IMG/VR virus record: IMGVR_UViG_3300037466_003379
Span: 1 to 64,000 of that record
Strand: one strand, 5' to 3'
Origin: a virus
Length of the DNA: 64,000 nt
The notes below the pieces were generated by a model. That model was not told where the DNA came from, searched no databases, and was given only the letters and a program-made list of their open reading frames with translations. How positions within the stretch are numbered: the stretch's first letter is position 1; every line of letters begins with the position of its first letter. The position numbers and the translations under genes are program-made. Shown piece by piece: positions 110 through 29,032 of this stretch.

Positions 110-158
110 GGTACCGCTAAAGCGTACCGCGCCCAGCACTGGGGCGCAATACTGAAAA
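110..158 (-). promoter_or_regulatory. Repeated promoter/operator copy 1
   Basis: Minus strand: TTTTCAGTATTGCGC-N17-TACGCTTTAGCGGTACC. Confidence 0.8.
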
Positions 159-638
159 TCAGACGCGCTCCTGCCGCGTCTCCAGCGCGTGCAGCGCACC
201 GAGGAGCGCGAACTCCTGGTGCTCCCAGAACGTCCCCGGCTCCGGCTTCAACGCGCCCCGGGCGTAGCCGACCTCCCGCAGGTGCTGCACGGAGCGCTCC
301 GCCGCCGCGACCCGAGCCCTCAGCCCGTCCTCCTCGAGCGCCAGCTCGTGCAGGCGCGCCGTCGACCACGGCAGCGAGTCACCGGGCCCCATCATCTTCT
401 TCGACTGCCCAGCGGCAGCCTGAGCCGCATTCCAGCCGGCCACCCACAGCTCGCGCTGCTCCGGGGTCATGGCGTCGGCCTGCAGGCGGCGAGCCTCGGT
501 GTCGTCGCTGCGGTAGACCTCGGCGACCTCGGCGAGGCGCCGGGCGCGCTGCTCGGCGCGGCGCGGGGCCTGCTCGCGGCGCAGCTGGGCGGCCATGGCG
601 GCGGGGCGGTAGTCGCCGGACAGGACAGACGTGCTCAT
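159..638 (-). CDS. Hypothetical protein
   Basis: ATG after GGAGCACCCG RBS (MSTSVLSGDY). Confidence 0.75.
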   Translation of the reverse strand: MSTSVLSGDYRPAAMAAQLRREQAPRRAEQRARRLAEVAEVYRSDDTEARRLQADAMTPEQRELWVAGWNAAQAAAGQSKKMMGPGDSLPWSTARLHELALEEDGLRARVAAAERSVQHLREVGYARGALKPEPGTFWEHQEFALLGALHALETRQERV

Positions 639-737
639 CGGGTGCTCCTTCGGGCTGGTGCCGGGGGTGGTCGGCACGCGGTTGAGTGTCGGGGATCGAG
701 CTGGCCCCCGGTGGTCGGGGGCCAGCTCGCGGCGGGC

Positions 738-1013
738 TCAGGCGGCGAGCTTCGGGGCGAAGACCTTCCAGGCGTCCTTGGCGGCCTTGATCGCGGCGTC
801 CTCGTCGTCCCAGCCGGCGGAGTCCACGGCCATCGGGGTGTTCAGCAGGAAGGGCAGCGTCATGACGATCTTGCGCTGCTTGCCGGAGTAGTGGATCCAG
901 CCCCGGGTGACCCCGTCGGCGTCGATCAGGCCGGTGGCGGACTTGCGGGTGAAGCGGACGCTCTCGACGGTCAGGTCGGTGGCGGCGGCGGTGGCGGTGA
1001 TCTTGGCGAGCAT
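738..1013 (-). CDS. Hypothetical protein
   Basis: GAGGAG RBS and own promoter copy. Confidence 0.8.
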   Translation of the reverse strand: MLAKITATAAATDLTVESVRFTRKSATGLIDADGVTRGWIHYSGKQRKIVMTLPFLLNTPMAVDSAGWDDEDAAIKAAKDAWKVFAPKLAA

Positions 1014-1044
1014 GTCGGGCTCCTCGGTGGGGGTCGCTCTCTCG

Positions 1045-1110
1045 GGTACCTCTAAAACGTACCCAGGGGCCGGGGTCTGATCAACACCTCAGCCAAGATT
1101 TTTCAGTATT
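1045..1110 (-). promoter_or_regulatory. Repeated promoter/operator copy 2
   Basis: AATACTGAAAA...TTGATC-N17-TACGTTTTAGAGGTACC. Confidence 0.8.
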
Positions 1111-1137
1111 TCTTATCGGCGCTGGTCAGCGCCCACC

Positions 1138-1275
1138 TCAGTGGGCTCCGTGGCCGGTGAGGATCAGCGCGAGCAGGACCAGCGAGGCGAGGGCGCAGAC
1201 GGCGGCTCCGACGAGCGGGAACCAGTGGGCGACGCGGTCGCGGGTCGTCGTCGTCTCGGCAGGGGTGACGGTCAT
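1138..1275 (-). CDS. 45-aa single-TM membrane peptide (MTVTPAETTTTRDRVAHWFPLVGAAVCALASLVLLALILTGHGAH), not in ORF track
   Basis: Translated by hand; GAGGAGCACCCGATG start, TGA at 1138-1140. Confidence 0.7.
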   Translation of the reverse strand: MTVTPAETTTTRDRVAHWFPLVGAAVCALASLVLLALILTGHGAH

Positions 1276-1348
1276 CGGGTGCTCCTCGAGCTGGGGTGTG
1301 CGGGGGGCGGAGGCCGGGCCCCGGGGGTGGTCGGGGCCCGGCCGTCGG

Positions 1349-1636
1349 TCACAGCTCGTCGTCGGCCAGCTCGTCCAGGTTGACCTCGCGCTCGGCCGGC
1401 TCGTAGGAGTCCCAGGGGCGGTTCCGGTACGGGGCGAGCGCGCGCTTCGGGTTGTAGGCGGCGGCCTTGAACATCAGGTTCGGGTAGGTGGCGGCGCAGT
1501 CGGCGACGCGCTCGTCGATCCACTCCTTGGGGCCGGCGGAGGAGTCGGCGCACAGCCAGCTCTTGTCGGTGGGGGCCTTCACGACCAGCATCCAGCGGGT
1601 GTCGGCGGGGGCGGTGGTGGTGTCGGTGGTGGCCAT
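1349..1636 (-). CDS. Hypothetical protein
   Basis: GAGGAGCACACGATG start (MATTDTTTAP). Confidence 0.8.
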   Translation of the reverse strand: MATTDTTTAPADTRWMLVVKAPTDKSWLCADSSAGPKEWIDERVADCAATYPNLMFKAAAYNPKRALAPYRNRPWDSYEPAEREVNLDELADDEL

Positions 1637-1667
1637 CGTGTGCTCCTCGGTGGGGGTCTCGCTCTTG

Positions 1668-1733
1668 GGTACCTCTAAAACGTACCCCCGGTCAGAGGTC
1701 TGATCAACACCCTGACCAAACTTTTTCAGTATT
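1668..1733 (-). promoter_or_regulatory. Repeated promoter/operator copy 3
   Basis: AATACTGAAAA...TTGATC-N17-TACGTTTTAGAGGTACC; closely matches copy 2. Confidence 0.8.
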
Positions 1734-2095: not shown

Positions 2096-2191
2096 CGGGT
2101 GCTCCTCGAGCGATCGGGCGGGGCGAGCCCGGCGGCGGGGGTGGTCGCCGCCGGGATCGCACGTGCAGGGTTCAGGCAACCAGGTGGCAGG

Positions 2192-2552: not shown

Positions 2553-2618
2553 GGTACCGGTAAACCGTACCTCGCTCCCGAGGGCTGGTGAAGCCCTGCA
2601 GCCAACTTTTTCAGTATT
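2553..2618 (-). promoter_or_regulatory. Repeated promoter/operator copy 4
   Basis: AATACTGAAAA...TTCACC-N17-TACGGTTTACCGGTACC. Confidence 0.8.
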
Positions 2619-2829: not shown

Positions 2830-3300
2830 TCAGGCCATGAAGTCCAGCGCGAACGCGGCGGCGTCGGCGAAGACCTCGGGGACGGTGCCGGTCTCGAACT
2901 CCTCGGCGTCCTCGGTCACGGCCACGACCCAGCTTCCGACCAGGACCCCAGCGACCGACTCCTCCTCGGCGATCAGCACGTCACCCTCCTCGACCTCGTC
3001 GCGGTCCACGGCGGCCAGCGCCTGGGCGGTGGTGTCGAAGTAGTGCACGGCGTAGCGGGCGACGGGCAGCTCCTCCACGACCAGCGGGGCGGGCTCGACC
3101 GGGGCGTCGGCGGCGGGACCGAAGTCCAGGGGCAGGGCCCACTCGTCGGTGGGGACGACCACGTCGGTGGTCTTCACGACGGGGGCGGCGAAGAGGGCGC
3201 CCTCGGCGGCGAGGACGAGCGGGTTGTCGGCGCGGAGGGGCGTTCCGAAGATGCCGGTGATCGGGGCGGTGCGGCGGGTGCGGCGGGCGGTGGTGGCCAT
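2830..3300 (-). CDS. Hypothetical acidic protein
   Basis: AGGAG RBS, own promoter copy. Confidence 0.75.
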   Translation of the reverse strand: MATTARRTRRTAPITGIFGTPLRADNPLVLAAEGALFAAPVVKTTDVVVPTDEWALPLDFGPAADAPVEPAPLVVEELPVARYAVHYFDTTAQALAAVDRDEVEEGDVLIAEEESVAGVLVGSWVVAVTEDAEEFETGTVPEVFADAAAFALDFMA

Positions 3301-3325: not shown

Positions 3326-3391
3326 GGTACCTCTAAAACGTACCCCCCGCTGGGGAGCTGGTGAAGCCCCCAGCGAACTTTTTTCAGTATT
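3326..3391 (-). promoter_or_regulatory. Repeated promoter/operator copy 5
   Basis: AATACTGAAAA...TTCACC-N17-TACGTTTTAGAGGTACC. Confidence 0.8.
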
Positions 3392-3417: not shown

Positions 3418-3840
3418 TCAGCTGGTCGCGAGCAGCTCGCCGAGCCGCTCCAGCGCGATCTCAGCGACCGCCCGCCGGGGCACCGTCCAGTAGCGGTTCC
3501 CGTCGCCGCCCAGGCGCACCACCTTGACGTCGCCGATGCCGGTCGAGCCCAGGACGACGTGCGGCAGGTCGGCCGGGATCTTCGCGTTGCCGGTGACCAG
3601 GACGGCGGCGCCGACCACGAGCGGCGGCAGCAGCTCCTGGACGGGTGCCTCGCCCTCGTGGGCGACCAGCGCCGCGCCCGGGCCCTTCAAGCGCTCGCCG
3701 GTCTCGACGTCCTCGATGAGGTACGTCTTGCGGCGGCCGCCGGGGGTGTCGACGACGCGGTACACGCGGCCCGGCTTCGTCGGGGTCGTGACGAGCTGGT
3801 CGTGGCGGAAGTACACGGTGGGCGTGGCGGTGCCAGGCAT
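3418..3840 (-). CDS. Hypothetical protein (possible tandem SH3-like folds)
   Basis: GAGGAG RBS, MPGTATPTVYF start. Confidence 0.7.
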   Translation of the reverse strand: MPGTATPTVYFRHDQLVTTPTKPGRVYRVVDTPGGRRKTYLIEDVETGERLKGPGAALVAHEGEAPVQELLPPLVVGAAVLVTGNAKIPADLPHVVLGSTGIGDVKVVRLGGDGNRYWTVPRRAVAEIALERLGELLATS

Positions 3841-3878: not shown

Positions 3879-4394
3879 TCAGCGCAGGATGTCGGCGGTG
3901 CGGCGGGCAGCCTCGGCGGCCGCGCGCTGGTCGCTGGGGCGGCCCAGCATCTCCGCCTTGTACTCGATCCAGGTCTGGCGGCCGTTCGCGCGCCACCAGT
4001 CCATCAGCTCCTCCGACGCGTACCGGGCGGCGGCACGGGCGGGCCCGTGGAACAGGGTGTAGGGGTCGATGCCGGCGGCCTCGCCAGCGTCGTTGAGGAG
4101 GTGGCCGCGGCACTCGTCCTCGGCCTGGTGGTAGCGGATCAGGGTCTGGGCCCCGTACATGCGGTCCACGGTCTGGTCCAGGCTCTCGCCCTCGCGGCGC
4201 TCCTGGCGGACCAGGTCGCGGCGGCGCTCCTCCTCGGTGACCTCGGGCTCGTCGACCTCGGCGTCGCGGCGGTCGATCTCGGCGAGGACGGCGTCGAGCT
4301 CGGTGTCGGTGGTGGCGGTGGCGACCATCGCGACCAGCGCGTCGTCATCGACCAGCGTCAGGTCGGTGGCGGGGGCGGTGGTCGTGGTGGTCAT
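3879..4394 (-). CDS. Actinophage-type hypothetical protein (GIDP..LF.GP....YASEEL..WW motif)
   Basis: Own promoter copy; motif resembles one recurrent in actinomycete prophage proteins. Confidence 0.75.
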   Translation of the reverse strand: MTTTTTAPATDLTLVDDDALVAMVATATTDTELDAVLAEIDRRDAEVDEPEVTEEERRRDLVRQERREGESLDQTVDRMYGAQTLIRYHQAEDECRGHLLNDAGEAAGIDPYTLFHGPARAAARYASEELMDWWRANGRQTWIEYKAEMLGRPSDQRAAAEAARRTADILR

Positions 4395-4419: not shown

Positions 4420-4485
4420 GGTACCGGTAAAACGTACCCCGCGGGAGAGGACTGGTGAAGCCCCTGACCAAACTTTTTCAGTATT
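4420..4485 (-). promoter_or_regulatory. Repeated promoter/operator copy 6
   Basis: AATACTGAAAA...TTCACC-N17-TACGTTTTACCGGTACC. Confidence 0.8.
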
Positions 4486-4916: not shown

Positions 4917-5177
4917 CTACGCCAGGGCGGCCAGAACGGCTCCTGCGACGGCGCTCACGGGGGTGGCGCTGCCGTCCAGGCGGACCTCCCACGGGTCCCC
5001 GTCGACGGCGAGGCGGTCCACGAACACGCGCCAGCCCCACGGGTTCTGGCTCCGCTCGACGGTCACGCGGCCGGTGGGGTGGGTGAAGCGCTCGGTGCTG
5101 CCGGACTTCACGGGCTCGGAGAAGTCCAGGCCGGTGAGGAGGGCGTACAGGGCGGCGAAGTTGGCGATCGTGGCCAT
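4917..5177 (-). CDS. Hypothetical protein
   Basis: GGAGCACCCGATG start (MATIANFAAL). Confidence 0.75.
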   Translation of the reverse strand: MATIANFAALYALLTGLDFSEPVKSGSTERFTHPTGRVTVERSQNPWGWRVFVDRLAVDGDPWEVRLDGSATPVSAVAGAVLAALA

Positions 5178-5221: not shown

Positions 5222-5337
5222 GGTACCGCTAAAGCGTATCCCCTCCCACCAGCCTGATCAATATTTTTCAGTATTAGCCACGTCACATGATCAGGTGTAG
5301 ACCAGTGATCCCCATACGGGTACGTTTTAGAGGTACC
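5222..5337. promoter_or_regulatory. Divergent pair of repeated promoters (copies 7 and 8) sharing one TTTTCAGTATT box (5265-5275)
   Basis: Minus TTGATC-N17-TACGCT; plus TAGACC-N17-TACGTTTTAGAGGTACC. Confidence 0.75.
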
Positions 5338-5378: not shown

Positions 5379-5633
5379 GTGACACCGTTGGGACACGCGC
5401 TGCTGACCGCCCTCGCGGAACAGGGCTGGACCTTGATCCGAGGGCGCGTGTCGGTGGTCGTGATCTCGCCGAGGACGGGGCAGGACTTCGTGATCCTCCA
5501 GCGCGAGCTGGAGGACGAAGTGGAGTTCGAGCTGCGTCTCATGGTGCTGCGCCTCGTGGTCCACGGCCTGGTGTGGCCGTGGCCGCCCGAGCACGACGGC
5601 ATCCACGGTGAGATCCCGCGCTTCATCCGGTAG
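5379..5633 (+). CDS. Hypothetical protein
   Basis: Downstream of promoter copy 8, followed by hairpin. Confidence 0.65.
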   Translation: MTPLGHALLTALAEQGWTLIRGRVSVVVISPRTGQDFVILQRELEDEVEFELRLMVLRLVVHGLVWPWPPEHDGIHGEIPRFIR

Positions 5634-5750: not shown

Positions 5751-6326
5751 GTGACACCACCCCTGAGCCTGACCATCAGCATCGAGCTGGCCCAACCGCT
5801 CCCCGACCAGCCGGCCACCGACCAGCCCGACCCCAGCGAGACCATCACCGCCCACCGCATCGGCCACGACGTCGCCCGCCACCTCGGCCGCGACGCGCGG
5901 CTCGTCCTCACCAGCGCCGACCCCGACCGGCGCCGCATCAGCTGGACCATCGCCCTCGACAGCGTCGCCCCCGTCAGCGCCGAGCTGACCCAGCTGGAAG
6001 ACGCCGTCGACATCGCGCTGTACGCACACCTCAAAGACCGGCCCGCGCTCGAGCACCGCGTCACCGAACTCCAGGCCCTGACCATGGACGAGGTCGACCG
6101 GCGCCTCGCCCAGTCCACCGTCCCCGAGGTCGTCGGCATCGACGAAGTCGCCGAGCTCCTGGGCGTCAGCCGGGCCACCCTCTTCAACCGGCGCGACACC
6201 GACCCCGCGTTCCCGCCGCCCATCGCCCGCGGCGTCTGGCTGCGCTCGACCATCGAGGTGTACGCCCGGGCCCACGAGGCTCCGCGGCGCGGCCGACCCG
6301 CGAAGCCTCGCCCCGAGAGCGACTGA
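5751..6326 (+). CDS. AlpA/excisionase-like HTH DNA-binding protein
   Basis: VVGIDEVAELLGVSRATLFNRR..DPAFPPPIARGVWLRSTIE; TAAGAT 7 nt upstream suggests leaderless start. Confidence 0.75.
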   Translation: MTPPLSLTISIELAQPLPDQPATDQPDPSETITAHRIGHDVARHLGRDARLVLTSADPDRRRISWTIALDSVAPVSAELTQLEDAVDIALYAHLKDRPALEHRVTELQALTMDEVDRRLAQSTVPEVVGIDEVAELLGVSRATLFNRRDTDPAFPPPIARGVWLRSTIEVYARAHEAPRRGRPAKPRPESD

Positions 6327-16890: not shown

Positions 16891-17148
16891 CGCCTTTCTG
16901 CGTCGTACGTCTTCCTCGCGAATCCGCCAAGATCAACCGAGGGAGACGTCTGTCCCTAGCCAGCGGGACAGTGGGGCCTACGTCGTGGCGCGGAACCTAC
17001 CGGTAAACCGGCTTGAGTCGGTGGAGGCGCGCGCTCGTGGGCGTGTCACCCCCGACGCCTCGCGCGCCCGACGCGCCGCCTCTACCCCGAACACCATCCC
17101 TGTGGGATACGTTGAGGGTCCCCATCATCCAGAGTCAGGACGTCAGTC

Positions 17149-17557: not shown

Positions 17558-17587
17558 TTGACCACCCCATAGGGGTGGGAGTAGGCT
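17558..17587 (+). promoter_or_regulatory. Candidate promoter TTGACC-N18-TAGGCT with ACCCCATAGGGGT palindrome in spacer
   Basis: Sequence upstream of AAA ATPase operon. Confidence 0.55.
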
Positions 17588-19108: not shown

Positions 19109-19614
19109 GCACCGCGACCCGAGCCGAGGTGCTCCGGGAGATCGCCTCCACCGTGCTGTCGGCGGCCGAGCTGCTCGCCGCCTGGTCCGGGAAGGAGGCC
19201 CCGACCGAGGAGCCGCGCGGCCGGTCCGGGCTGCTCGTCGGCGACGAGCACTACCTGGTGCGCGGCGACATCGTGGACATCCGGTGGCGTGGCGTGGCCG
19301 AGGTGGTGCCGCTGGCCGAGCTGCTGACGGTGGCAGCCGAGGCCGGCGACCAGCGCAAGGCCGACCGGCTCGCCGCCGCAGTCAAGGACCAGCCGCGGGC
19401 GATGCGAGACGCGGAGCGGTACATCCGGGCGCACGGCGACGGCGGGATGGTCCTGATCGAGGGCACCGCGGCGTGGCGCGCCCCGGAGTGGGCCGAGCTG
19501 CGCCGCCGACTGCGCGCGGTGCACGCCGAGACCGCGGCGTGGTGGAGCTCGGCCGAGCCCGAGCCTGAGCCGGGCGAGCAGCTCGACCTGTTCGACCTGG
19601 CGGGTGCCCGGTGA
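19105..19614 (+). CDS. Hypothetical protein (C-terminal QLDLF clamp-binding-like motif)
   Basis: Coupled; ends GEQLDLFDLAGAR. Confidence 0.6.
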   Translation: MSTATRAEVLREIASTVLSAAELLAAWSGKEAPTEEPRGRSGLLVGDEHYLVRGDIVDIRWRGVAEVVPLAELLTVAAEAGDQRKADRLAAAVKDQPRAMRDAERYIRAHGDGGMVLIEGTAAWRAPEWAELRRRLRAVHAETAAWWSSAEPEPEPGEQLDLFDLAGAR

Positions 19615-19883
19615 GCGCCGGACGCGCCCGCGGCGCCTGCACCCGCTACCCGGCGTCGAAGATCCGGTACCGGTCGAAGGTCCAGGCCCGCTCCGGACTG
19701 GACCGGGCCCGCCAGATCATGGCCGCCGAGGGCATCCCCGCCGAGCTCCAGCCCGTCCACATCGAACGGTGCCCCGCCTGCCGGGGCTGGCACACCCACC
19801 AGGACCGCGACGCGGTCGCCCGCTTCCGGGAGGAGGTCACCACGCTGCCCGCCGGCCTGGCGGAGCAGCTCGACGCAGCCTGA
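19611..19883 (+). CDS. Small Zn-binding protein
   Basis: ERCPACRGWH. Confidence 0.6.
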   Translation: MSAGRARGACTRYPASKIRYRSKVQARSGLDRARQIMAAEGIPAELQPVHIERCPACRGWHTHQDRDAVARFREEVTTLPAGLAEQLDAA

Positions 19884-19972
19884 GCCGCGAGGCCGGGCCC
19901 GGCACGCCGCAACCACCCCTGCGGCCCCGGGCCTGGCCTCTCGGCGTCCCTCCCCCACACGAGGAGCACCCG

Positions 19973-20419
19973 ATGGACACCACCAGCGACACCACGCCCG
20001 AGAGCGCCCTGCGCGCTCTCCTGATCGACGACGACGCCCCCGACTGGTCCGCCGCTCTCTGCGCGCAGACCGATCCGGAGGTCTTCTTCCCGGAGAAGGG
20101 CGGCTCGACCCGCGAGGCCAAGCGGATCTGCGCCGGGTGCCCGATCCGGCCCGCATGTCTGCGCTACGCGCTCGAGACCGGGGACCGGTTCGGCGTGTGG
20201 GGCGGGCTGAGCGAGCGGGAGCGCCGCAGGCTCGCGACCGCGAAGGGCGACTCGAAGCCGCCCACCGCAGCCGGGCAGAAGGCAGAGGCCCGCCGCCGGG
20301 TCGTCGCCCAGCTCGTCCACTCCGGCGCGACCAACGCGCAGATCGCCTCGAAGGTCGGCGTCTCCCAGCGCTTGGTCGAGCGCGACCGCCAGGTGCTGCG
20401 CGAGCAGGACGCGGCATGA
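19973..20419 (+). CDS. whiB: WhiB-family regulator with C-terminal HTH
   Basis: ALCAQTDPEVFFPEKGGSTREAKRICAGCPIRPACLRYAL...FGVWGGLSERERR. Confidence 0.92.
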   Translation: MDTTSDTTPESALRALLIDDDAPDWSAALCAQTDPEVFFPEKGGSTREAKRICAGCPIRPACLRYALETGDRFGVWGGLSERERRRLATAKGDSKPPTAAGQKAEARRRVVAQLVHSGATNAQIASKVGVSQRLVERDRQVLREQDAA

Positions 20420-20802
20420 CGCCGGCGGAGGTGGCGGCCGAGGTCGCCGAGGTCATCCGCTGGACGTCGTACGGCCGCGAGTCCCGCGCGACGGCGAAGG
20501 GGCTCGCGGCCGCGGTACTGGGCGGGCTGCGCCGCCACTACTTCGACCGGGACCTGCCCGTGACGGTGATCTGGCAGGGCCCGCCGATCCTGGTCGACCA
20601 CGAAGCCGAGGCCCGCGTCGCGGTCACGGTCACGACCGCCCCAGCTGGTCGAGCCGACGTGCTGCGCCGACTGCTCGAGCACCGGGCCGCGTCGAACGCC
20701 ATCGACGCCCAGCTCGTCGTGTTCACCGGCGGTGCCGGGGTCGGGCTGCCCGCGATGCTCGGCGGGCTGCCGCTGTACGCGCTCCCGCTCGTCGGCCGGT
20801 GA
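20416..20802 (+). CDS. Hypothetical protein
   Basis: ATGA coupling. Confidence 0.6.
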   Translation: MTPAEVAAEVAEVIRWTSYGRESRATAKGLAAAVLGGLRRHYFDRDLPVTVIWQGPPILVDHEAEARVAVTVTTAPAGRADVLRRLLEHRAASNAIDAQLVVFTGGAGVGLPAMLGGLPLYALPLVGR

Positions 20803-21335
20803 AGCGCGGAGGACCCCTCAAACGGACGCCGATGCCGCCCCGCTCGAAGCCTCTCCCGCAAGGGAAGGGCATCGAGCGGGGCTCTGGCATGTCCGGGGGC
20901 GGAGAGCTGCGCAGGACGGCGCCGCTGCGCTCGTCGAGCCCGACCGCGCGGGCGAAGGTGTCCCCGCCGGCGAAGTCTGCGTCGAAGCTGGAGCGCGAGG
21001 CCGCGGACCGGGCGGCGGAGCGCGAGGCGAAGCGGCTGGTCCGCGCCAGGAGCGGCGGACGGTGCGAGGTCTGCGGGATCGCGGCCGCGACGAACTTCTC
21101 CCACCGGAAGGGCGCCGGTCAGGGGGGCGAGTGGTCGGCCGCGAACGGCCTTGACGCGTGCGGCTGGGGGAACACCTTGGGCTGCCACGGCCGCATCCAC
21201 CAGAGGCCGGAGGAGGCGCGCGAGCACGGCTGGATGCTGCGCCGGAATCAGGTGCCGGAGGAGGAGCCCGTCGACCACGCGTGGCTCGGGCGGGTGCTGC
21301 TGACCAGCGACGGGATGGTCATCCCTGCCGACTAA
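20799..21335 (+). CDS. HNH endonuclease-like protein
   Basis: RSGGRCEVC...SHRK...N....C.....GCHGRIH. Confidence 0.75.
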   Translation: MKRGGPLKRTPMPPRSKPLPQGKGIERGSGMSGGGELRRTAPLRSSSPTARAKVSPPAKSASKLEREAADRAAEREAKRLVRARSGGRCEVCGIAAATNFSHRKGAGQGGEWSAANGLDACGWGNTLGCHGRIHQRPEEAREHGWMLRRNQVPEEEPVDHAWLGRVLLTSDGMVIPAD

Positions 21336-21384
21336 TTTTCAGTATTGACACCTCTCCCCTGCAGGGCTACGGTTTACCGGTACC
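21336..21384 (+). promoter_or_regulatory. Repeated promoter/operator copy 9
   Basis: TTTTCAGTATTGACA-N17-TACGGTTTACCGGTACC. Confidence 0.85.
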
Positions 21385-21403: not shown

Positions 21404-21706
21404 ATGACCGCTCCCGCCGCTCCCGCGCTGCTCCCCCTCGCCGCCCTCATGGCCTGGTACCGCGCCATCCGCGCCGTCACCATGACCGGCCCCGACCAGC
21501 TCGTCCTCATCGACGGGGTCGGCGTGTTCACCTCCGCCGAGATCCGCGCCGCGCTCCGCGCCGCCCGTGGCGCCTACGCCGAGGGCGACCGCTACTCCGC
21601 CGTGTGCGCCATCGAGCGCGCCATCACCCCCACCGGCGAGACGCTCACCAGCACCACCTGGGCCTGGGCGAACAAGGTGCTGACCACCGTCGAGAACGCC
21701 GCCTGA
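21404..21706 (+). CDS. Hypothetical protein
   Basis: AAGGAGG RBS (MTAPAAPALLP). Confidence 0.75.
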   Translation: MTAPAAPALLPLAALMAWYRAIRAVTMTGPDQLVLIDGVGVFTSAEIRAALRAARGAYAEGDRYSAVCAIERAITPTGETLTSTTWAWANKVLTTVENAA

Positions 21707-21787: not shown

Positions 21788-23623
21788 ATGACCACCTTCG
21801 CCCCCACCCCGCAACAGAGGGCCGCCGAGGACGCGCTGCGCCGCCGCGAGGACGTCCTGATCGCCGCTGGCGCTGGCGCCGGCAAGACCAGCACCCTCGT
21901 CCACCTCGCCCGCGTCTGCCGCGAGCTGGGCCTGTACGGCGCCTACATCTGCTTCAACGGCTCCACCGCGCAGGAGGCCCGGGGCAGGTTCCCCAGCAAC
22001 TTCACCTGCGGCACCGCGCACTCGTTCGCCACGCAGGCCAGCCGCGTGAACGGCGGCCGCCCGTTCTGGCACCACCGCCTGCGCTCGAAGCAGAACAAGC
22101 GCGGCTTCCAGAACGCGCGCGTCGTCGCCGACATCCTCGGCATCACCGACGACCTCGAGGTCGCCGGGGAGCACCTCGAACCGACGGAGGTCGCCACCCT
22201 CGCCGTGCGCACCGTCCAGGCGTTCTGCGGGACCGCTGACGAGTCGATGACCGCCGAGCACGTCCCGCTCCCCGACTACCTCGAGGAGAACGTCCGCGGC
22301 CCGCTGGCGGCCGCCCTGCTCCCCCACGCCCAGCGGGCCTGGCGGGACATGGAGCTGCGCGACGGGCTCGCAGGCCGCGAGCACGGGACGCCGGCCTCTG
22401 CCGACTCCTGCCTGAACGTCGACCACGCGTTCTACCTCAAGCGCTGGCAGCTCTCCGGCCTGCCGATCATGGTCAAGGGTCCCGGCGGGGTCGAGCAGCC
22501 CGCCGACGTCGTGTTCTTCGACGAGTGCCAGGACGCCTCGCCCGTCATGGCGGCGATCTTCGAGCGCATGCGGACCCAGTACGGGAAGCAGCTGGTCCTG
22601 GTCGGCGACCAGTGCCAGGCCATCAACGGCTTTGCCGGCGCGATCGACATCATGCCGAGGTTCGCCTACGCGACCCGCGTCGAGCTGACCAAGTCCTTCC
22701 GGTTCGGCCCGGCCGTCGCCGACGAGGCCAACGTGTGGCTGTCCCTGCTCGACGCGGACCTGCGCATCACCGGACACGACCCGGTGGAGTCCGTCGTCGC
22801 CCCGCTCGGTCCGGACGAGGTGCCCGACGCGATCCTCTGCCGCACCTCCGCCGGGGCGATGCGCGCCGTCCTGGAGCAGCACGCCGCCGAGCGGAAGGTG
22901 CACCTGGTCGGCGACGGCGACGACATCAAGCGCCTCGCCCAGGCCGCGATCGACCTCGACGAGAAGGGCTGGACCGGACACCCGGACCTGCGCGGCAAGT
23001 TCCGCAGCTGGCAGCAGGTCGTCGACTACTGCGAGAGCGGCGAGCTCGGCTCCGAGGACCTGGAGACCGGCGTCCGGCTGATCAAGGACTTCACCCCTGA
23101 GGGCGTCATCGAGGCGATCGAGAAGCTGGTCAGCGCGAACGCCGCCGAGGTCACCGTCTCGACCGCGCACGTGTCGAAGGGCCTGGAGTGGGACGTCGTG
23201 AAGATCGGCGACGACTTCCGCGGCCCGAAGCTCGACAAGAACGGCGTGGAGGTCCTGCCGGAGCGGGACGAGCTGATGCTCGCCTACGTCGCGGTGACGA
23301 GGGCGAAGCTGCGCCTGGACGTGGGGTCGCTGTCCTGGGGCCGGGCCTACGCCGGGGCACCTGCTCCGCGGCCCGCGCCGGAGCCGGTCCGGGAGCGGGT
23401 CGAGCTGCCCGCTGCCGCGCCAGCTCCGGAGCCCGAGGGTGCTGCCCCCGCGACGGGGGTCGGCCGGGGTGCAGCGGTGCTGAGGGCGTGGCTGGAGTCC
23501 GAGGAGGACGGTGCGCCGCTGACCGCAGAGGTGCTGGAGGGCGTCGTGCGGGACGTGGTCGCCGCGTACCTGGACCAGGGGGTGCGGCGGCCGGAGCTGC
23601 GCGTGGTCGCGTCCGCTGGGTGA
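21788..23623 (+). CDS. UvrD/Rep-like SF1 helicase
   Basis: AGAGAGKT, FFDECQD, VGDQCQAI, LTKSFRFG, STAHVSKGLEW, YVAVTRA. Confidence 0.92.
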   Translation: MTTFAPTPQQRAAEDALRRREDVLIAAGAGAGKTSTLVHLARVCRELGLYGAYICFNGSTAQEARGRFPSNFTCGTAHSFATQASRVNGGRPFWHHRLRSKQNKRGFQNARVVADILGITDDLEVAGEHLEPTEVATLAVRTVQAFCGTADESMTAEHVPLPDYLEENVRGPLAAALLPHAQRAWRDMELRDGLAGREHGTPASADSCLNVDHAFYLKRWQLSGLPIMVKGPGGVEQPADVVFFDECQDASPVMAAIFERMRTQYGKQLVLVGDQCQAINGFAGAIDIMPRFAYATRVELTKSFRFGPAVADEANVWLSLLDADLRITGHDPVESVVAPLGPDEVPDAILCRTSAGAMRAVLEQHAAERKVHLVGDGDDIKRLAQAAIDLDEKGWTGHPDLRGKFRSWQQVVDYCESGELGSEDLETGVRLIKDFTPEGVIEAIEKLVSANAAEVTVSTAHVSKGLEWDVVKIGDDFRGPKLDKNGVEVLPERDELMLAYVAVTRAKLRLDVGSLSWGRAYAGAPAPRPAPEPVRERVELPAAAPAPEPEGAAPATGVGRGAAVLRAWLESEEDGAPLTAEVLEGVVRDVVAAYLDQGVRRPELRVVASAG

Positions 23624-23657
23624 GGCGGGTTTCCGCAGGTAGAGGGGTCGGGCTGGC

Positions 23658-23697
23658 TTGATCAGCCCTCCCCACCTAGGTACGGTTTACCGGTACC
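23658..23697 (+). promoter_or_regulatory. Repeated promoter copy 10 (lacks TTTTCAGTATT box)
   Basis: TTGATC-N17-TACGGTTTACCGGTACC. Confidence 0.8.
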
Positions 23698-23720: not shown

Positions 23721-24020
23721 ATGGACACGCTCCCCCCGCCGCCCGACCAGCTCCCCCACCACGTCGCCTTCCACGCCCGCGAGACCGGCGCCGCCGTCAT
23801 GGTCCGCGGCCACGACACCTACCCCGAGCTGCCGCCCGGCGGCCGCCTGTGGCGCTACGTCTACCCCGACGAGTCGACCGCCTACGCCGCCACCGCCACC
23901 AGTCACGGCCACGAGCTCGGCGGCGCGCCGTGCCCGACCCGCGACGAGGCGCTCCGCAACCTCCGGGCGCTGCGCCGCTCGGCGATGTTCCGGGGCTGGG
24001 CCGCCCGGGAGGAGCTGTGA
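23721..24020 (+). CDS. Hypothetical protein
   Basis: GGAGG RBS (MDTLPPPP). Confidence 0.7.
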   Translation: MDTLPPPPDQLPHHVAFHARETGAAVMVRGHDTYPELPPGGRLWRYVYPDESTAYAATATSHGHELGGAPCPTRDEALRNLRALRRSAMFRGWAAREEL

Positions 24021-24862
24021 CCTTCTACCTCGGCTGCCCCGAGCCGTCCTGGCTCCGCCGCACCACCGTCCCGCTGTTCATCTCCCGCAACCGCCTCGTC
24101 CGCGTCCGCCAGCTCCCCGCCGCACGCGGGCCGTGGGCGCTCGACAGCGGCGGATTCTCCGAGCTGCAGCTCCACGGACGCTGGACGATCACCCCGCAGC
24201 AGTACGTCGACGAGGTCCGCGGCTACATCGCCCAGCTCGGCGAACCGGACTTCGCGGCGCCGCAGGACTGGATGTGCGAGGACGACCAGCTCGCCCGCAC
24301 CGGGAAGACGGTCGAGGAGCACCAGGTGCTCACCGCCGTCAACTACGCCGTCCTGCGCCAGCTCGCCCCCGAGGTCCCCTGGATCCCAGTGCTGCAGGGC
24401 GCCACGATCGCCCACTACCTGCGCCACGCCGGCATGTACGCGGCGATGGGGGTCGACCTCGCCGCGCACCCGCGCGTGGGCGTCGGCTCCGTCTGCCGCC
24501 GCCAGGCCACGGTGGGCGCCGCGCTCCTGTTCGACCGCCTGGTGGACGAGCTGGGCCTGCGAAACCTCCACGGCTTCGGCCTCAAGGCCGACGGCGTCGA
24601 GCTGTTCGGCGAGCGCCTCGCCTCCGCCGACTCGATGGCCTGGTCGTACGCGGCCAGACGGGACGCAGACGACCCGGACCGGGCGCCGTGCCCGGACGGC
24701 CGCCGAGACTGCCGGAACTGCCTGCATGCGGCGCTGGCCTGGCGCCAGGTTGTGCTGGCCCGGTGGGAGCGCGCTCGTGCCGCTGCGTGGGCGGTGCCGG
24801 TCGAGGTGCCCCAGCTGCGCGAGCGCCGCGCGCCAGCCCAGGCCGAGCTGTTCCCCGTCTGA
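24017..24862 (+). CDS. DpdA-like (TGT-fold) DNA-guanine transglycosylase
   Basis: WALDSGGFSEL, APQDWMCE, IPVLQG, GVGSVCRRQ, LHGFGLK, SADSMAWS, C-terminal C....C..C. Confidence 0.8.
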   Translation: MTFYLGCPEPSWLRRTTVPLFISRNRLVRVRQLPAARGPWALDSGGFSELQLHGRWTITPQQYVDEVRGYIAQLGEPDFAAPQDWMCEDDQLARTGKTVEEHQVLTAVNYAVLRQLAPEVPWIPVLQGATIAHYLRHAGMYAAMGVDLAAHPRVGVGSVCRRQATVGAALLFDRLVDELGLRNLHGFGLKADGVELFGERLASADSMAWSYAARRDADDPDRAPCPDGRRDCRNCLHAALAWRQVVLARWERARAAAWAVPVEVPQLRERRAPAQAELFPV

Positions 24863-24884: not shown

Positions 24885-24934
24885 TTTTCAGTATTGACAC
24901 CTCTCCGCCCTGCGGGGTACGCTTTACCGGTACC
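24885..24934 (+). promoter_or_regulatory. Repeated promoter/operator copy 11
   Basis: TTTTCAGTATTGACA-N18-TACGCTTTACCGGTACC (18-bp spacer, 24900-24917). Confidence 0.8.
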
Positions 24935-24966: not shown

Positions 24967-25269
24967 ATGAGCGCACCGACCGCCACCACCGCCAACCTGG
25001 TCCGCGCCTACCGCGACGCCGTTGACTTCGCCGTCCTCGCCATCGAAGAGGACGACCAGGAGGCCGCCGAGGTCGCCGCTGCCGACCGCCGCCGGATCGC
25101 CCACACGCTCACCGAGCAGGGCCAGGGCTGGGTCTCCAAGCTCCTGATCGCCGAGGGTCGCGCCCGCGTCGCCTTCGCGACCACCCCCGCCGCCGACCAG
25201 CCCCGCTTCGCCGGCACCATCGCCGCCCGCACCGAGGCCGTGGACCGCGTCCTCGCCCGCTGCGCCTGA
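24967..25269 (+). CDS. Hypothetical protein
   Basis: GAGGAGCACCCGATG start. Confidence 0.75.
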   Translation: MSAPTATTANLVRAYRDAVDFAVLAIEEDDQEAAEVAAADRRRIAHTLTEQGQGWVSKLLIAEGRARVAFATTPAADQPRFAGTIAARTEAVDRVLARCA

Positions 25270-25335: not shown

Positions 25336-25782
25336 ATGAGCACCATCGACCAGACCGCCCCTGCCGCCGAGCCCCGCAAGGGCCTGATCGTGGGCATCCT
25401 CCGCCCCGCCGACCACGGCGACTGCTCGCTGAACGGCGTGAGCAACCGCTACCGCCGCGGCGTGGTCGTCGGAGTCCACCGGAAGCCCGGCAGCACCTCC
25501 CTGGCCGAGCACGAGGCCGTCCTCCGCGGCGAGCACGTCCTCCCCCGGATCTTCACCGGCAGCGACGACGTCTGCGAGCTGGAGCTCGTGGTCCGCAACC
25601 TGTTCGGCGGGATCTACGTGAGCGCCGAGCCCGTCGAGGGACAGGGGCGCTGGGCGATGGCCGGTGGCTGCTACATCGAGACCACGGACAGCCGGTGGAA
25701 CGAGACCCTGCGGGCGATCTACGACGCCGACCACACCATGCAGGTCGGCCCGATCCCGCTGCACGACCGGTACGAGAGCTGA
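25336..25782 (+). CDS. Phage hypothetical protein
   Basis: RBS motif; DCSLNGVS...MAGGCYIETTDSRW...PIPLHDRYE. Confidence 0.8.
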   Translation: MSTIDQTAPAAEPRKGLIVGILRPADHGDCSLNGVSNRYRRGVVVGVHRKPGSTSLAEHEAVLRGEHVLPRIFTGSDDVCELELVVRNLFGGIYVSAEPVEGQGRWAMAGGCYIETTDSRWNETLRAIYDADHTMQVGPIPLHDRYES

Positions 25783-26021
25783 CCGTGCCCGACACCGACC
25801 CCGCGCTCGCCGCCGAGCGGGCGCGGGTCGTCCGCCACTTCCAGCGCTACACCGCCGAGCAGCGCACCACGCACGCCGCGTCCCACCGCCTCGGTCACCG
25901 ACAGCGCACCGCCATCGGCGAGCACTTCTACACCCACCCCGACGTACCCGGTCGCGCCTTCCCCCGGCGCGACCTCGCCGCCCGCGCCGGCCTGGCGGCG
26001 CAGCACCCCGAGGAGCACCCG

Positions 26022-27008
26022 ATGTCTCTGACCCTGTCCCACACTGCCGCCGAGGGCACCTTGCTCGACGGCACCAGCAAGGGCGACGGCTCCGCCGAGA
26101 TCCTCCACGCGAGCGCCCAGAACTGGCGCTGGTCGCGGAACCTGGGCTGCTGGTTCGTCCGCTACTCCCGCGAGAAGCCGCCCCGCCTCGCGGCGATCGA
26201 CAAGGACGCGGAGGCCCTCCGCGCCGCCGGGTTCGAGGTCGAGGTCGAGATCGACGGCCAGCCCCGCCGCTACGAGGAAGCCGAGGCCGACCGGGCGCAG
26301 CACTTCGGGGAGCGCGCCGAGCACCTGCACGGCAAGGCTGAGCGGCGCGCGGCCGCGAGCGAGGCCGCCTACCGGGGCGCGAAGCAGATCATGGACGGCA
26401 TCCCCTCTGGTCAGCCGATCCTGGTCGGCCACCACAGCGAGCGCCGGCACCGCCGCGACCTGGACAAGATCGACCGCGGCTTCCGGAAGTCCTTCGAGCT
26501 GAGTAAGGAAGCCGAGGACGCCCAGCGGCGCGCCGAGCTCGCCGAGAACCACATGCGGTACCGGGAGGACCCGTACGCGATGGCCCGCCGGTTGAAGGAC
26601 CGGACCGCGAAGCGGGCGAAGGCGCAGAGGAGCCTGGACGGGCACTCGCGGAACTTCCTCAACGGCCGCGGCGAGGTGATGTACGTCGAGGAGCACAAGC
26701 CGGCCACCGGGACCTGGCGGGAGCAGCTGCTCCTGGAGGTCGCGCACCTGGACGAGGAGATCCGCGGCCTGACCGATGCGCTCGAGGTGGCGAAGCAGGA
26801 GGGCCGCTACCTCGCGGTCACGAAGGACGACGTGAAGAAGGGCCAGCTGGTGAAGATCGACGGCCGCTGGTACCTCGTCGACAAGGTGAACCGCACGACC
26901 GTCTCCGTCACCTCGTTCGGCCTCAGCTTGAAGTACCCGCTCGACCAGATCCGGGGCGTCAAGGACGCGCCGCCGGAGGTCGCCGCCCTGGCGGGCACCG
27001 AGGTCTAG
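26022..27008 (+). CDS. DUF3560 domain protein (in-frame extension possible from GTG 25785)
   Basis: IPSGQPILVGHHSERRHRRD signature; RBS motif at 26022. Confidence 0.82.
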   Translation: MSLTLSHTAAEGTLLDGTSKGDGSAEILHASAQNWRWSRNLGCWFVRYSREKPPRLAAIDKDAEALRAAGFEVEVEIDGQPRRYEEAEADRAQHFGERAEHLHGKAERRAAASEAAYRGAKQIMDGIPSGQPILVGHHSERRHRRDLDKIDRGFRKSFELSKEAEDAQRRAELAENHMRYREDPYAMARRLKDRTAKRAKAQRSLDGHSRNFLNGRGEVMYVEEHKPATGTWREQLLLEVAHLDEEIRGLTDALEVAKQEGRYLAVTKDDVKKGQLVKIDGRWYLVDKVNRTTVSVTSFGLSLKYPLDQIRGVKDAPPEVAALAGTEV

Positions 27009-27057
27009 TTTTCAGTATTGACCCGTCGCCGCTCACGCGGTACGGTTTAGCGGTACC
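27009..27057 (+). promoter_or_regulatory. Repeated promoter/operator copy 12
   Basis: TTTTCAGTATTGACC-N17-TACGGTTTAGCGGTACC. Confidence 0.85.
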
Positions 27058-27101
27058 AACTGGCCGACCACCCCCGGCCACCGAGCACACAGGAGCACCC
27101 G

Positions 27102-27461
27102 ATGACCGAGCACACGATCCTGCTCGTCGGCAACGACCACGACGTCCGCGCACACCTCGCCTTCCTCGACACCGAGGTCATCCGCGTCGAGGACATCGAA
27201 CAGGCCGACGCCTTCCTCAACGCCCGCGACCACGACCACTACCTCGTGATCGTCGCCCCCGACGTCATGCGAGACCTCCGCGAGCGCCCCTTCCACGGCT
27301 GGGACTTCGCCGTCGCCGTCGGAGAGACCGTCTCCGGCGTCCCCGGCTGGCTCTGGACCGCCGCCCTCATCACCGGCGCCCGCTCCGTCCTCGAGCTGCC
27401 CACCGCGCTCCCCTGGCTGGCCGACACCGCCCGCCACGGCTGGCCCGCCCTCGCCGCATAG
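27102..27461 (+). CDS. Hypothetical protein (receiver-like alpha/beta pattern)
   Basis: RBS motif; ILLVGND...GARSVLELP..LPWL. Confidence 0.7.
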   Translation: MTEHTILLVGNDHDVRAHLAFLDTEVIRVEDIEQADAFLNARDHDHYLVIVAPDVMRDLRERPFHGWDFAVAVGETVSGVPGWLWTAALITGARSVLELPTALPWLADTARHGWPALAA

Positions 27462-27476
27462 CGGCACCTGATCTCG

Positions 27477-27512
27477 GGGCCCGGTGTCGCGGCGGAAGGA
27501 GACACCGGGCCC
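27477..27512 (+). terminator. Hairpin
   Basis: gggcccggtgtc-12nt-gacaccgggccc. Confidence 0.5.
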
Positions 27513-27568
27513 CGTCCTCATCCCTTCCGCACCGGCCGACCACCCCCGGCCCCGACCAGGAGCACCCG

Positions 27569-28207
27569 ATGACCGCCCTCCTCCCCGAGGTGGAGGTCTG
27601 GGGCCCGCCGCCACCCGCTGACGACGACCTCCCCGAGCCCCGCCCCCGCCCACACAAGATCCGCATCACCTGCCCGCACGGCTGCAACCAGCTCGTCGGC
27701 TGGATCAGCAACACCGGCCACGGCCTCGACTTCGACGACTACGGCCAGCCCTGGTCCGCCGAGGCACCCGAGCACATGCCGTTCCACGCTGAGATATTCG
27801 CCCGGCCCGGACCAGCGGCCCGCTGGGTGCTCGACCAGCACGACCAGGACGTCCACCACGCCGCGCGCCGCACCGACCCGCACAGCGTCCGCGTGGACGA
27901 GGTCGTCGCGGCATGCGAGCGCCTCGCTCTCGGCGACACGGAGCCGCTCGTCGGCACGGGGTTCTGCCTGCGCTGCGGCGCCGCGATGACGATGCGCGAC
28001 GGCGTCTGGTCCGACGACCACGACCGGACGGCCTGCCCCGAGCCAGTCGACCTCTGCCCGAACCTGTGCTCACCGAACAGCGACTACGGCCCCGAGGTGT
28101 CGACCTCCTGCCCGCACTGCCACGGTTCGGGCTCCCTCTTCGACGTACACCACCCCATACCCGACACTGCGGCGACAGGCGCCGTGCAGGATAGGAGCGC
28201 ACGATGA
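27569..28207 (+). CDS. Cys-rich Zn-binding hypothetical protein
   Basis: RBS motif; several CxxC. Confidence 0.7.
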   Translation: MTALLPEVEVWGPPPPADDDLPEPRPRPHKIRITCPHGCNQLVGWISNTGHGLDFDDYGQPWSAEAPEHMPFHAEIFARPGPAARWVLDQHDQDVHHAARRTDPHSVRVDEVVAACERLALGDTEPLVGTGFCLRCGAAMTMRDGVWSDDHDRTACPEPVDLCPNLCSPNSDYGPEVSTSCPHCHGSGSLFDVHHPIPDTAATGAVQDRSAR

Positions 28208-28617
28208 CCGCCCCCGCCGCCGTGGAGACGCCGACGATGCCCGAGCAGCCCGACCAGCAGCCGCCGAAGCGGCCCCGCGGCCGCCCCCGGATCGCCGCTG
28301 ACGCCGGCAAGTCGAAGCAGGCCACCTGGACCCCCGGACCGGACCAGAAGGACCGCATGGCGAAGCTCAAGGCGAAGATCGTCATGTCGCAGAACGCGAT
28401 GGTCCGGACCGCGCTCGACCGGCACCTCGCCGCCCGCGCGGACGGCGCCAGCTACAAGGACCGGGAGCAGATCCCGGCCGCCGCCAAGCAGGCCCAGTGG
28501 ATCCCGGACGCCGGCCAGGTCGACGCGCTCGCCGCCGCGGCCACCGAGGACGGGATCGCCCAGACCGAGGTCCTCCGCTTCGCAGTGGAGGACTTCCTGA
28601 CGAGCTGGGGAGCCTGA
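28204..28617 (+). CDS. AT-hook + tandem RHH-like DNA-binding protein
   Basis: PKRPRGRPR; duplicated KQA.W.P unit. Confidence 0.65.
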   Translation: MTAPAAVETPTMPEQPDQQPPKRPRGRPRIAADAGKSKQATWTPGPDQKDRMAKLKAKIVMSQNAMVRTALDRHLAARADGASYKDREQIPAAAKQAQWIPDAGQVDALAAAATEDGIAQTEVLRFAVEDFLTSWGA

Positions 28618-28982
28618 TGACCGAGGAGCAGCGCGAGCACCCGCTCGCCCCGGTCGTGCGCCGCGTCCGGCAGGTCCTTAACCACGGCGATCCGGGCGAC
28701 CTGGAGTACGCGGACGTCGACCGGCTGACGCGCGAGGCCGAGCGCACGGTCCGGGAGGAATCGACGACCCCGGCGCCGTTCGCCCGGGAGCTGGCGACCG
28801 GGTTGGTCGAGCCGGGCACGGACGACGCGAGGTGCATCCGGTGCGGCGCCCAGGCGATCCTCTACGCGCTCGACGTGGAGCAGTGGCAGTGGTTCACGTG
28901 CCTGGATCACCACGGCGTCGTGATCGCGGAGCTGCTGCGCGGGAAGCACGACGGGACGCGACCGCCCCTGCCGCCTCTCTGA
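28617..28982 (+). CDS. Hypothetical protein
   Basis: TGATG coupling; CIRC...CLDH. Confidence 0.6.
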   Translation: MTEEQREHPLAPVVRRVRQVLNHGDPGDLEYADVDRLTREAERTVREESTTPAPFARELATGLVEPGTDDARCIRCGAQAILYALDVEQWQWFTCLDHHGVVIAELLRGKHDGTRPPLPPL

Positions 28983-28983
28983 G

Positions 28984-29032
28984 TTTTCAGTATTGACGCC
29001 TCTCCGCCCACGCAGTACGGTTTAGCGGTACC
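28984..29032 (+). promoter_or_regulatory. Repeated promoter/operator copy 13
   Basis: TTTTCAGTATTGACG-N17-TACGGTTTAGCGGTACC. Confidence 0.85.

Follow-up and report, generated by a model that had tools for sequence, protein, structure and literature searches.

The first 64,000 nucleotides of the IMG/VR virus record IMGVR_UViG_3300037466_003379 (104,105 bp), which form the window analysed here and share the numbering of the record, carry the same promoter-like unit ahead of one group of small genes after another, and the question raised by this locus is what holds a short box at the start of every unit constant while the surrounding sequence varies. The whole record (72% G+C; CheckV completeness estimate 88%) encodes virion proteins (siphovirus-type tape measure, endolysin, minor tail proteins and tail tube protein) along with ParA-like, tyrosine recombinase and FtsK/TraB-like functions for maintenance or integration, and because tail and endolysin genes share one replicon with the latter, the element is, by its gene content, a temperate phage-plasmid of a high-GC actinomycete. 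We find that the box is built into promoters of the housekeeping type and also recurs apart from them, and we propose, as a somewhat probable reading, that it marks a dispersed operator regulon under one element-encoded repressor.

An invariant box fused to repeated promoters

The 17-nt core TACGNTTTANNGGTACC occurs 13 times in the window with 0 mismatches, against a chance expectation of 0.02, and no further window site lies within two mismatches of it (coordinates of all cores in Table 1). The 13 copies of the original prediction were all recovered exactly where it had placed them, its plus-strand coordinates (5298, 21345 and so on) being those of the -35 starts. The whole record holds 16 copies, and with the extra three (97190, 98475 and 104038) the minus-strand array runs on over the contig ends. 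Every copy is intergenic and co-oriented with the downstream gene. As predicted, the spacer between -35 and -10 is 17 nt long in 12 of the 13 window copies, with 18 nt in the copy at 24918 (14 and two copies, respectively, over the 16 of the record), and the (G)GTAC-N9-GTACC palindrome ascribed to most copies is a perfect GGTAC-N9-GTACC in 10/13 window copies and 13/16 record copies, where a simulation expects 0.02. When the copies are aligned on the -10 hexamer, the invariant block reads GG-TACG-N-TTTA-NN-GGTACC and forms a box extending from -10 to about +6, the fixed positions of which are invariant in 17/17 non-redundant copies and the variable positions of which are N5, N10 and N11. The spacer and leader, in agreement with the variable spacer described earlier, are free in sequence (0.05-0.5 bits per position).

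The -10 hexamer is TACGNT in 16/16 copies, while the -35 hexamer is degenerate (consensus TTGAcc; forms TTGACA, TTGATC, TTCACC, TTGCGC and TAGACC), its individual copies agreeing with TTGACA at 3-6 of six positions. The housekeeping promoter of Streptomyces has a -35 of NTGACC and a -10 of TANNNT, the inner three bases of which are normally variable (PMC4895711). Judged by its hexamers, the unit is a sigma-70/HrdB-type promoter, TTGACN-17-TANNNT, but two of the three inner -10 bases are fixed in the units, as are eleven bases outside the hexamer. Since two of the inner -10 bases, the TTTA and the GGTACC are invariant while the -35 is degenerate and the spacer and leader are free, the invariance exceeds, on sequence grounds, the constraint imposed by RNA polymerase.

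Each copy is the core of a cassette of ~110-150 nt made up of an AT box, the promoter, the box, a leader and a ribosome-site 13-mer; thus, the predicted unit is confirmed but is larger than first described, as the AT box and the 13-mer also belong to it. The AT box (11 nt, AATACTGAAAA) accompanies 15/16 copies (13 exact 10-nt cores and two of the variant TTTTCAGTGTT) and has a single further occurrence in the record outside the units. Its placement takes four forms, in which it overlaps the -35, lies 2 nt or 23 nt upstream of it, or lies 14 nt upstream in reverse, one unit being without it; one AT box is common to the divergent pair 5222/5321, and in four units it is flush with the upstream stop codon. 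A canonical terminator lies directly upstream of the units at 110/104038 and 98475, with the AT box as its U-tract, and we considered whether the AT box is a mere terminator U-tract in general, an idea that holds at these units but fails on the invariant CAGTATT and on the reversed copies. A spacer hairpin was likewise rejected as a general feature: in class B units and in unit 10, the loop of a significant hairpin (z down to -3.5) contains the -35, whereas class A units have none (z = -1.2 to +1.4).

The leaders are 25-52 nt long and have a common motif, CCACCGAG; they are without a common fold, hairpins being present in some copies only. The ribosome-site 13-mer GGAGCACCCGATG is found in 22 copies, always on the coding strand and at ATG starts, and is confined to the early regions 64-29081 and 93262-104004, being absent from the late/maintenance region at 30-93 kb. 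It consists of a Shine-Dalgarno (SD) core and further conserved bases followed by the ATG, and also precedes internal cassette genes. Its CACCCG part is, we presume, not complementary to the 3' end of 16S rRNA. We propose that the early genes would obtain a uniform translation-initiation region from GGAGCACCCGATG.

The box also occurs outside the units. The commonest variant of its 13-nt core, CGGTTTACCGGTA, is present exactly at two extra places in the window, and sites with at most one mismatch to it number nine, against 0 expected. Three stand-alone core palindromes of the form TACCGGTWAACCGG (16999, 38940 and 85859) are all intergenic and beside regulator-type genes; the stand-alone copies occur in both orientations and are without GGTACC. 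A degenerate 17th copy of the box at 73944 precedes the first gene of the terminase/structural operon, and a relative of the element, L036, has a nearly perfect copy at the same late-operon place, the promoter in both elements being of the extended -10 kind (TGnTACGNT), with neither a -35 nor an AT box. Because the box recurs in both orientations, away from promoters and also on a promoter of another kind, it is best explained, from this distribution, as an operator read by a protein on double-stranded DNA rather than as a signal intrinsic to the promoter or read in RNA. The copy before the terminase/structural operon also argues against confining the box to genes of early host takeover, as had been suggested, and the proposed analogy to plasmid leading regions is loose, as the hexamers and the 17-nt spacing would be read on duplex DNA and class A units lack a significant hairpin; the single-strand promoters of leading regions (Frpo/ssi type) are long imperfect hairpins whose -35 and -10 arise in single-stranded DNA only.

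The proposed regulon and its possible repressor

The single-repressor promoter-operator regulon first predicted is partly upheld, in so far as a sigma-70/HrdB-type promoter bears an invariant, partly palindromic box that recurs near regulator genes and a late operon; protein binding, repression, its timing and the identity of the binder are what we infer. A master repressor would be needed because the element is temperate (par, recombinase and LexA-type box) and has about 17 host-type promoters, and we hold with moderate confidence that the units form one dispersed operator regulon under an element-encoded repressor. From the anatomy and statistics of the units, their conservation in L036 and the pattern across the family described below, the following mechanism can be envisaged. 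Each unit would be a promoter for the host housekeeping sigma factor fused to an operator, the core of which, CG-N-TTTA-NN-GGTA, lies inside GGTAC-N9-GTACC between -10 and about +6, and a protein bound there would block open-complex formation. In the plasmid-prophage state, one element-encoded protein would occupy all sites and silence at least 16 early mini-operons together with the late operon, variation at N5, N10 and N11 perhaps grading its affinity and the three perfect TACCGGTWAACCGG palindromes at regulatory genes plausibly acting as high-affinity autoregulatory sites. In a naive cell reached by infection or transfer there would be no repressor, and host RNA polymerase would by itself drive every unit. 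The AT box would be a second DNA-level site for some partner.

The repressor in this mechanism would be the helix-turn-helix (HTH)-like protein encoded at 38974-39333, which we rank first among the candidates, as a palindrome lies over the start site of its own gene, with a winged-HTH/ribbon-helix-helix (RHH) pair at 16.6-17.5 kb as the alternative. The former protein belongs to a small actinobacterial family with 13 remote homologues and a conserved C-terminal TG..L.T.Q.R motif; its Protein Atlas leads comprise HTH_23 only, no homologue was found in five IMG/VR relatives, and its nearest homologue is not in IMG/VR or PLSDB. The winged-HTH protein at 16585-16890 gave sub-threshold Pfam matches to HTH_11, MarR and GntR and weak winged-HTH matches of its model, and no homologue among 5.8 billion proteins. 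Neither candidate was assigned to a known repressor family.

Release of the lysogen would probably proceed via a small gene at about 86.0 kb. There, a LexA-type box, TCGAAC-N4-GTTCGA (record 86020-86060), abuts a TACGGT -10 hexamer, with the ATG 6 nt further on, and the gene behind it is leaderless, encodes 98 aa and is divergent from the tyrosine recombinase gene. The core palindrome at 85859 and an AT box at 85893 lie about 150 nt upstream of this promoter. The gene may encode an SOS-controlled antirepressor.

Near-identical DNA was found neither among GenBank phages nor among PLSDB plasmids. The 17-mer TACGNTTTANNGGTACC gave single chance matches in IMG/VR, L036 excepted; searches of GTDB species genomes with two composite patterns, in which the bare 17-mer was not scanned, returned 0 and then 3 chance matches in non-actinobacterial metagenome-assembled genomes, and those of JGI metagenomes 0 and then 3 chance matches. 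The DNA of L036 matches the record at 82% identity across the late genes (terminase region), and this contig has two perfect units, each with the AT box and ribosome-site block found here. These head cassettes of a unit and 1-2 genes (L036:297-1597) that are directed away from the late operon and are not in the present record, which has a different short gene at 73970-74410. Thus, to judge from the two sequences, the set of cassettes turns over among close relatives.

Six related elements, including every 87-115-kb relative examined, have dispersed promoter repeats that differ in sequence from one element to another; among them are pAmyja1, pS1D4-14.2 and the IMG/VR relatives G001, G002 and G004. 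The plasmid pAmyja1 of Amycolatopsis japonica, which has 28 proteins in common with the element, the entire virion module included, carries about 14 copies of a unit with the palindrome TGTCAACACGCGTGTTGACA over the -35, then TAGNGT, then TCAGCAACGC. The unit of pS1D4-14.2 (about 10 copies) is a hairpin with the -35 in its loop followed by TGGTTTAATTAA, accompanied by 35 copies of a ribosome-site box GACCAAGGAA, and that of G002 (about 20 copies) reads AGGAGTTGACATCCC...TAGNGT...TGTCAGCAC; G001 and G004 each have their own recurring promoter-like motif and ribosome-site box, of which few copies were inspected. Orthologues of three early genes of the element lie in pAmyja1 cassettes under the different unit of that plasmid, and none of the candidate regulators of the element is conserved there. 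Such change in concert would be expected of sites that co-evolve with a trans-acting factor, by analogy with the Cluster A stoperators (PMC6550527). We raise, tentatively, the possibility that the 90-115-kb family runs on 'private expression codes', each lineage having its own promoter/operator unit and its own extended ribosome-site box, which would be replaced in concert across the early region while orthologous genes stay, defining immunity groups and letting orphan cassettes plug in or move.

Several points weigh against a regulon governed by one repressor. The symmetry axis of the stand-alone sites falls between T6 and T7 and that of the units on T7, an offset of half a base pair, and N5 and N10 are complementary in 6/16 copies, close to the about 5.4 expected by hand calculation; because of this offset and the lack of covariation at the variable positions, one protein for both kinds of site is not a given. 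The same lack of covariation rules out an inner hairpin or a strict inner palindrome in the units. The HTH of the protein at 38974-39333 stands at the level of a lead, and a classical repressor gene could sit in the missing part of the 88%-complete record. Conserved promoter families without a repressor exist in the lytic phages T4 and T5. Furthermore, a box following the -10 (TCAGCA...) is common to pAmyja1 and G002, which are fairly distant relatives, and a conserved promoter or leader function would fit this box at least as well as a lineage-specific operator.

Competing readings of the units

The last two points lead to the alternative that the units are strong early promoters without a dedicated repressor, in which the box would be an optimised discriminator or initial transcribed sequence, spread by recombination and kept for polymerase kinetics. 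The canonical -35/-10 geometry and the homology of the whole 110-150-nt cassette between copies fit such promoters, one 127-bp identical pair showing that copying does occur, and relatives likewise have conserved boxes after the -10, that of pAmyja1 and G002 being held in common. We nevertheless regard this alternative as unlikely, given that the 13-14-nt core is found thrice away from the units (once inverted and once without a -10 in register), that the late operon in both this record and L036 has the box on a -35-less promoter, and that a temperate element with par, recombinase and LexA box must silence about 17 promoters of the host type.

Positive control is improbable. The units would here be delayed-early ('middle') promoters dependent on an element-encoded activator, and the WhiB-HTH protein encoded at 19973-20419 would bind the AT box beside the -35 while docked on sigma region 4, much as WhiB7 uses its AT-hook. 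This protein (Pfam Whib, 1.1e-24; weak HTH_23, Sigma70_ECF and GerE matches at residues 105-144) is a WhiB-HTH fusion, the gene for which lies in a unit-less operon; the 21-29 kb array of plus-strand units begins directly downstream. The AT box overlaps or abuts the -35 as TTTTCAGTATTGAC in 10/18 units, and several -35 hexamers (TTCACC, TTGCGC and TAGACC) are poor, as would suit activated promoters. However, four AT-box geometries and one unit without the box are unlike a class II activator site, pAmyja1 and pS1D4-14.2 encode WhiB proteins yet have units without an AT box, and the invariant box after the -10 is left unexplained; a partnership between the WhiB-HTH protein and the AT box is speculative. 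The C-terminal HTH of the protein resembles the sigma region 4/LuxR type, and the unit-less operon has a promoter of its own, TTGACC-18-TAGGCT, at about 17558-17587.

It is also conceivable, but very improbable, that the signal is read in RNA, early mRNAs beginning with GGUACC and a common leader and ribosome block that an RNA-binding factor or a nuclease would recognise for stability or translation. GGTACC would indeed correspond to +1 to +6 if transcription starts 6-7 nt past the -10, and conservation is seen in the leader motif CCACCGAG and in the 13-mer GGAGCACCCGATG, but also in the C and G of the -10 and in the upstream GG, which are not transcribed, whereas the leaders share no fold and the stand-alone cores lie in both orientations and lack GGTACC. 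Least credible of all is that units or border AT boxes are chiefly recombination substrates by which cassettes swap between relatives, with promoter activity secondary: although two complete cassettes of L036 have no counterpart at the equivalent place here, four units have an AT box that directly adjoins the upstream stop codon and the contig probably broke at a 127-bp identical unit, recombination needs identity only and would not account for position-specific invariance, a fixed 17-nt spacing or co-orientation with genes, and no recombinase is linked to the sites.

Cassette genes, host and known systems

Table 1. Coordinates and context of the repeated units, stand-alone palindromes and putative regulator genes (record numbering)
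Feature	Position	Strand	Signals	Genes and context
Unit 1 (class A)	110..158	-	core 110-126; -35 TTGCGC 144-149; AT box 148-158 directly after terminator hairpin	gene starts at 66 and runs off contig
Unit 2 (class B)	1045..1110	-	core 1045-1061; -35 TTGATC 1079-1084; AT box 1100-1110	738-1013, 159-638
Unit 3 (class B)	1668..1733	-	core 1668-1684; -35 TTGATC in hairpin loop (z = -3.5)	1349-1636, 1138-1275
Unit 4 (class B)	2553..2618	-	core 2553-2569; best box variant CGGTTTACCGGTA; -35 TTCACC	2192-2527, 1871-2095
Unit 5 (class B)	3326..3391	-	core 3326-3342; -35 TTCACC in loop of 11-bp hairpin (z = -3.5)	2830-3300
Unit 6 (class B)	4420..4485	-	core 4420-4436	3879-4394, 3418-3840
Unit 7	5222..5275	-	core 5222-5238; -35 TTGATC 2 nt from AT box 5265-5275	4917-5177; head of minus-strand array
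Unit 8	5265..5337	+	core 5321-5337; weak -35 TAGACC; AT box in common with unit 7	about 5379-5633, 5751-6326 (excisionase/MerR-type HTH protein); divergent from unit 7
Unit 9 (class A)	21336..21384	+	core 21368-21384; -35 TTGACA; AT box flush with upstream stop	21404-21706, 21788-23623 (DNA helicase)
Unit 10 (no AT box)	23657..23697	+	core 23681-23697; hairpin around -35 TTGATC	23721-24020, 24017-24862 (DpdA)
Unit 11 (class A)	24885..24934	+	core 24918-24934; 18-nt spacer	24967-25269, 25336-25782, 25785-27008 (DUF3560)
Unit 12 (class A)	27009..27057	+	core 27041-27057; AT box flush with upstream stop	four genes, 27102-28982
Unit 13 (class A)	28984..29032	+	core 29016-29032	five genes, 29079-30693
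Stand-alone palindrome	16999..17012		TACCGGTAAACCGG; no -10 in register	between winged-HTH gene 16585-16890 (-) and RHH-like gene 17149-17550 (+)
Stand-alone palindrome	38940..38953		TACCGGTAAACCGG; about -4 to +8 of promoter TGGCCA-17-TACATT; inverted relative to units	promoter of gene 38974-39333
Stand-alone palindrome	85859			between tyrosine recombinase gene and leaderless small gene with LexA-type box
Top candidate repressor gene	38974-39333	+	palindrome over own start site	119 aa, HTH-looking C-terminus; adjoins par locus
Alternative candidate regulator gene	16585-16890	-		101-aa winged-HTH protein; divergent from RHH-like gene 17149-17550
WhiB-like protein gene	19973-20419	+		extra C-terminal HTH; in unit-less operon 17732-21335

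The genes behind the units had been described as short and mostly without homology, and 16 of 20 tested genes do lack a PHROG or Pfam match, but longer products are encoded there as well, namely a helicase of 611 aa, a DpdA of 281 aa and a DUF3560 protein of 407 aa. The other recognisable cassette genes of the window encode a MuF-type C-terminal-like domain, an excisionase-type HTH protein and a member of one PHROG of unknown function, and beyond the window there are a ParB_N protein and a methyltransferase. The cassette helicase presumably serves replication. DpdA (24017-24862, plus strand; Pfam PF23859, 2.9e-74) belongs to the 7-deazaguanine DNA modification family, and the element probably, by this match, swaps guanines of its own DNA for a 7-deazaguanine derivative. 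The gene at 3879-4394 (minus strand), which has an orthologue in pAmyja1, encodes a free-standing protein of 171 aa that matches only the C-terminal ~100 residues of head morphogenesis/maturation protease PHROGs (2.9e-16), the position at which MuF-type proteins bear variable cargo domains. The idea that the cassettes carry anti-defence cargo is conjecture, DpdA and the methyltransferase being the only products that point that way. No paralogy was found among cassette proteins; therefore, the repeats are not a by-product of gene duplication, which we had considered as their origin.

By protein similarity, the nearest relative comes from Pseudonocardia sp. T1-2H; this contig of 103,993 bp encodes a tail tube protein 76% identical to that of the element, and also WP_341339721.1, which shares 59% identity with the candidate repressor from 38974-39333. 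The host is probably, from such similarities, an actinomycete of the Pseudonocardiales or one like them. The tail tube gene (60289-61446, minus strand) has more than 600 relatives at E <= 1e-20, many of them on 90-115-kb contigs of Streptomyces, Kitasatospora, Amycolatopsis, Embleya and Pseudonocardia, and these seem to make up a large family of phages and phage-plasmids of actinobacteria that has been little described. Bases 51-177 of the record are identical to its last 127 bp (103979-104105), while the flanks differ, and this repeat is one promoter unit (promoter, leader and four codons). Because the identical 127-bp unit stands at both contig ends, the assembly probably broke at it; the true genome would then be larger and may hold further units. 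Between the minus-strand operon at 6.5-15.7 kb and the regulator genes lies a 1.4-kb stretch (15715-17149) with near-zero coding signal and a lower G+C (0.67), which may hold an origin or encode a non-coding RNA; scans of the window, this stretch included, against Rfam and for tRNAs gave no matches.

Dispersed repressor sites and conserved early promoters are already known from P1, L5, phiC31 and Clusters K and O. In the phage-plasmid P1, the single repressor C1 acts at many scattered operators that overlap promoters of unrelated lytic and accessory genes, and induction proceeds through an antirepressor; P1 operators are asymmetric 17-mers unrelated in sequence to the box, and P1 promoters are not known to be copies of one another. 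Compared at the sequence level, the present element differs in that the entire promoter-leader-ribosome-site cassette is repeated, and no C1 homologue was found in it. The Streptomyces phage phiC31 has a set of nearly identical early promoters together with numerous inverted repeats to which the c repressor binds, but these repeats are separate 17-bp elements and the promoters are not known to resemble the housekeeping consensus, whereas here a TTGACN-17-TANNNT promoter has its operator merged with the -10, the sequences being dissimilar. Morons carry individual promoters and are active in the prophage state. Like them, a unit with its 1-5 genes forms an autonomous transcription unit, cassette content varies between relatives, and terminator-like hairpins (class B units and unit 10) or canonical terminators (before units 1 and 98475) are present; unlike morons, all cassettes are under one common promoter-operator.

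In Cluster A phages such as L5, a 13-bp site recognised by the immunity repressor gp71, the stoperator, is present in about 20-30 copies; stoperators are mostly away from promoters, are oriented with transcription and halt elongation, and site and repressor co-evolve into immunity groups (PMC9283540, PMC6550527). The core common to the units and the stand-alone sites is likewise an asymmetric 13-mer, but all 16 full copies lie on the -10/start region of promoters and 13/16 are dyads, the three stand-alone cores being the exceptions. In Cluster K, SAS/ESAS are conserved asymmetric ~13-mers with an SD core near the start codon, confined to non-structural genes (PMC3203893); GGAGCACCCGATG behaves like a site of this kind, its bases presumed not to pair with 16S rRNA included, though it is unrelated in sequence and one module of a larger promoter cassette. 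Cluster O phages have more than 30 invariant 17-bp dyad repeats, TGTTCGGNNNCCGAACA, with a variable centre across the non-structural arm, the function of which is still unknown; these are not tied to predicted SigA promoters, and one third are inside genes (PMC4351075). Both sets are dispersed dyads with a variable centre in an actinophage, but the sites described here are on promoters. In a limited literature search we came across no published account of this motif, of a cassette that fuses AT box, promoter, operator and ribosome site, or of such a pattern across a phage family.

Each unit combines a short high-GC promoter, strong-looking and probably repressible, with a ribosome site that matches it, and parts of this kind are of use in the engineering of Streptomyces and Pseudonocardia. 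The units also group about 40 orphan genes into one early, co-regulated set, an obvious place to look for functions in host takeover and anti-defence. As each relative has its own unit before orthologous genes, the family offers a natural series on the genome-wide replacement of operator/repressor specificities and so of immunity groups. If the proposed regulon is real, one small box and one protein would shut off about 17 operons on a 104-kb phage-plasmid and would provide a compact and testable model for the choice between residence and lysis in phage-plasmids of antibiotic-producing actinomycetes.

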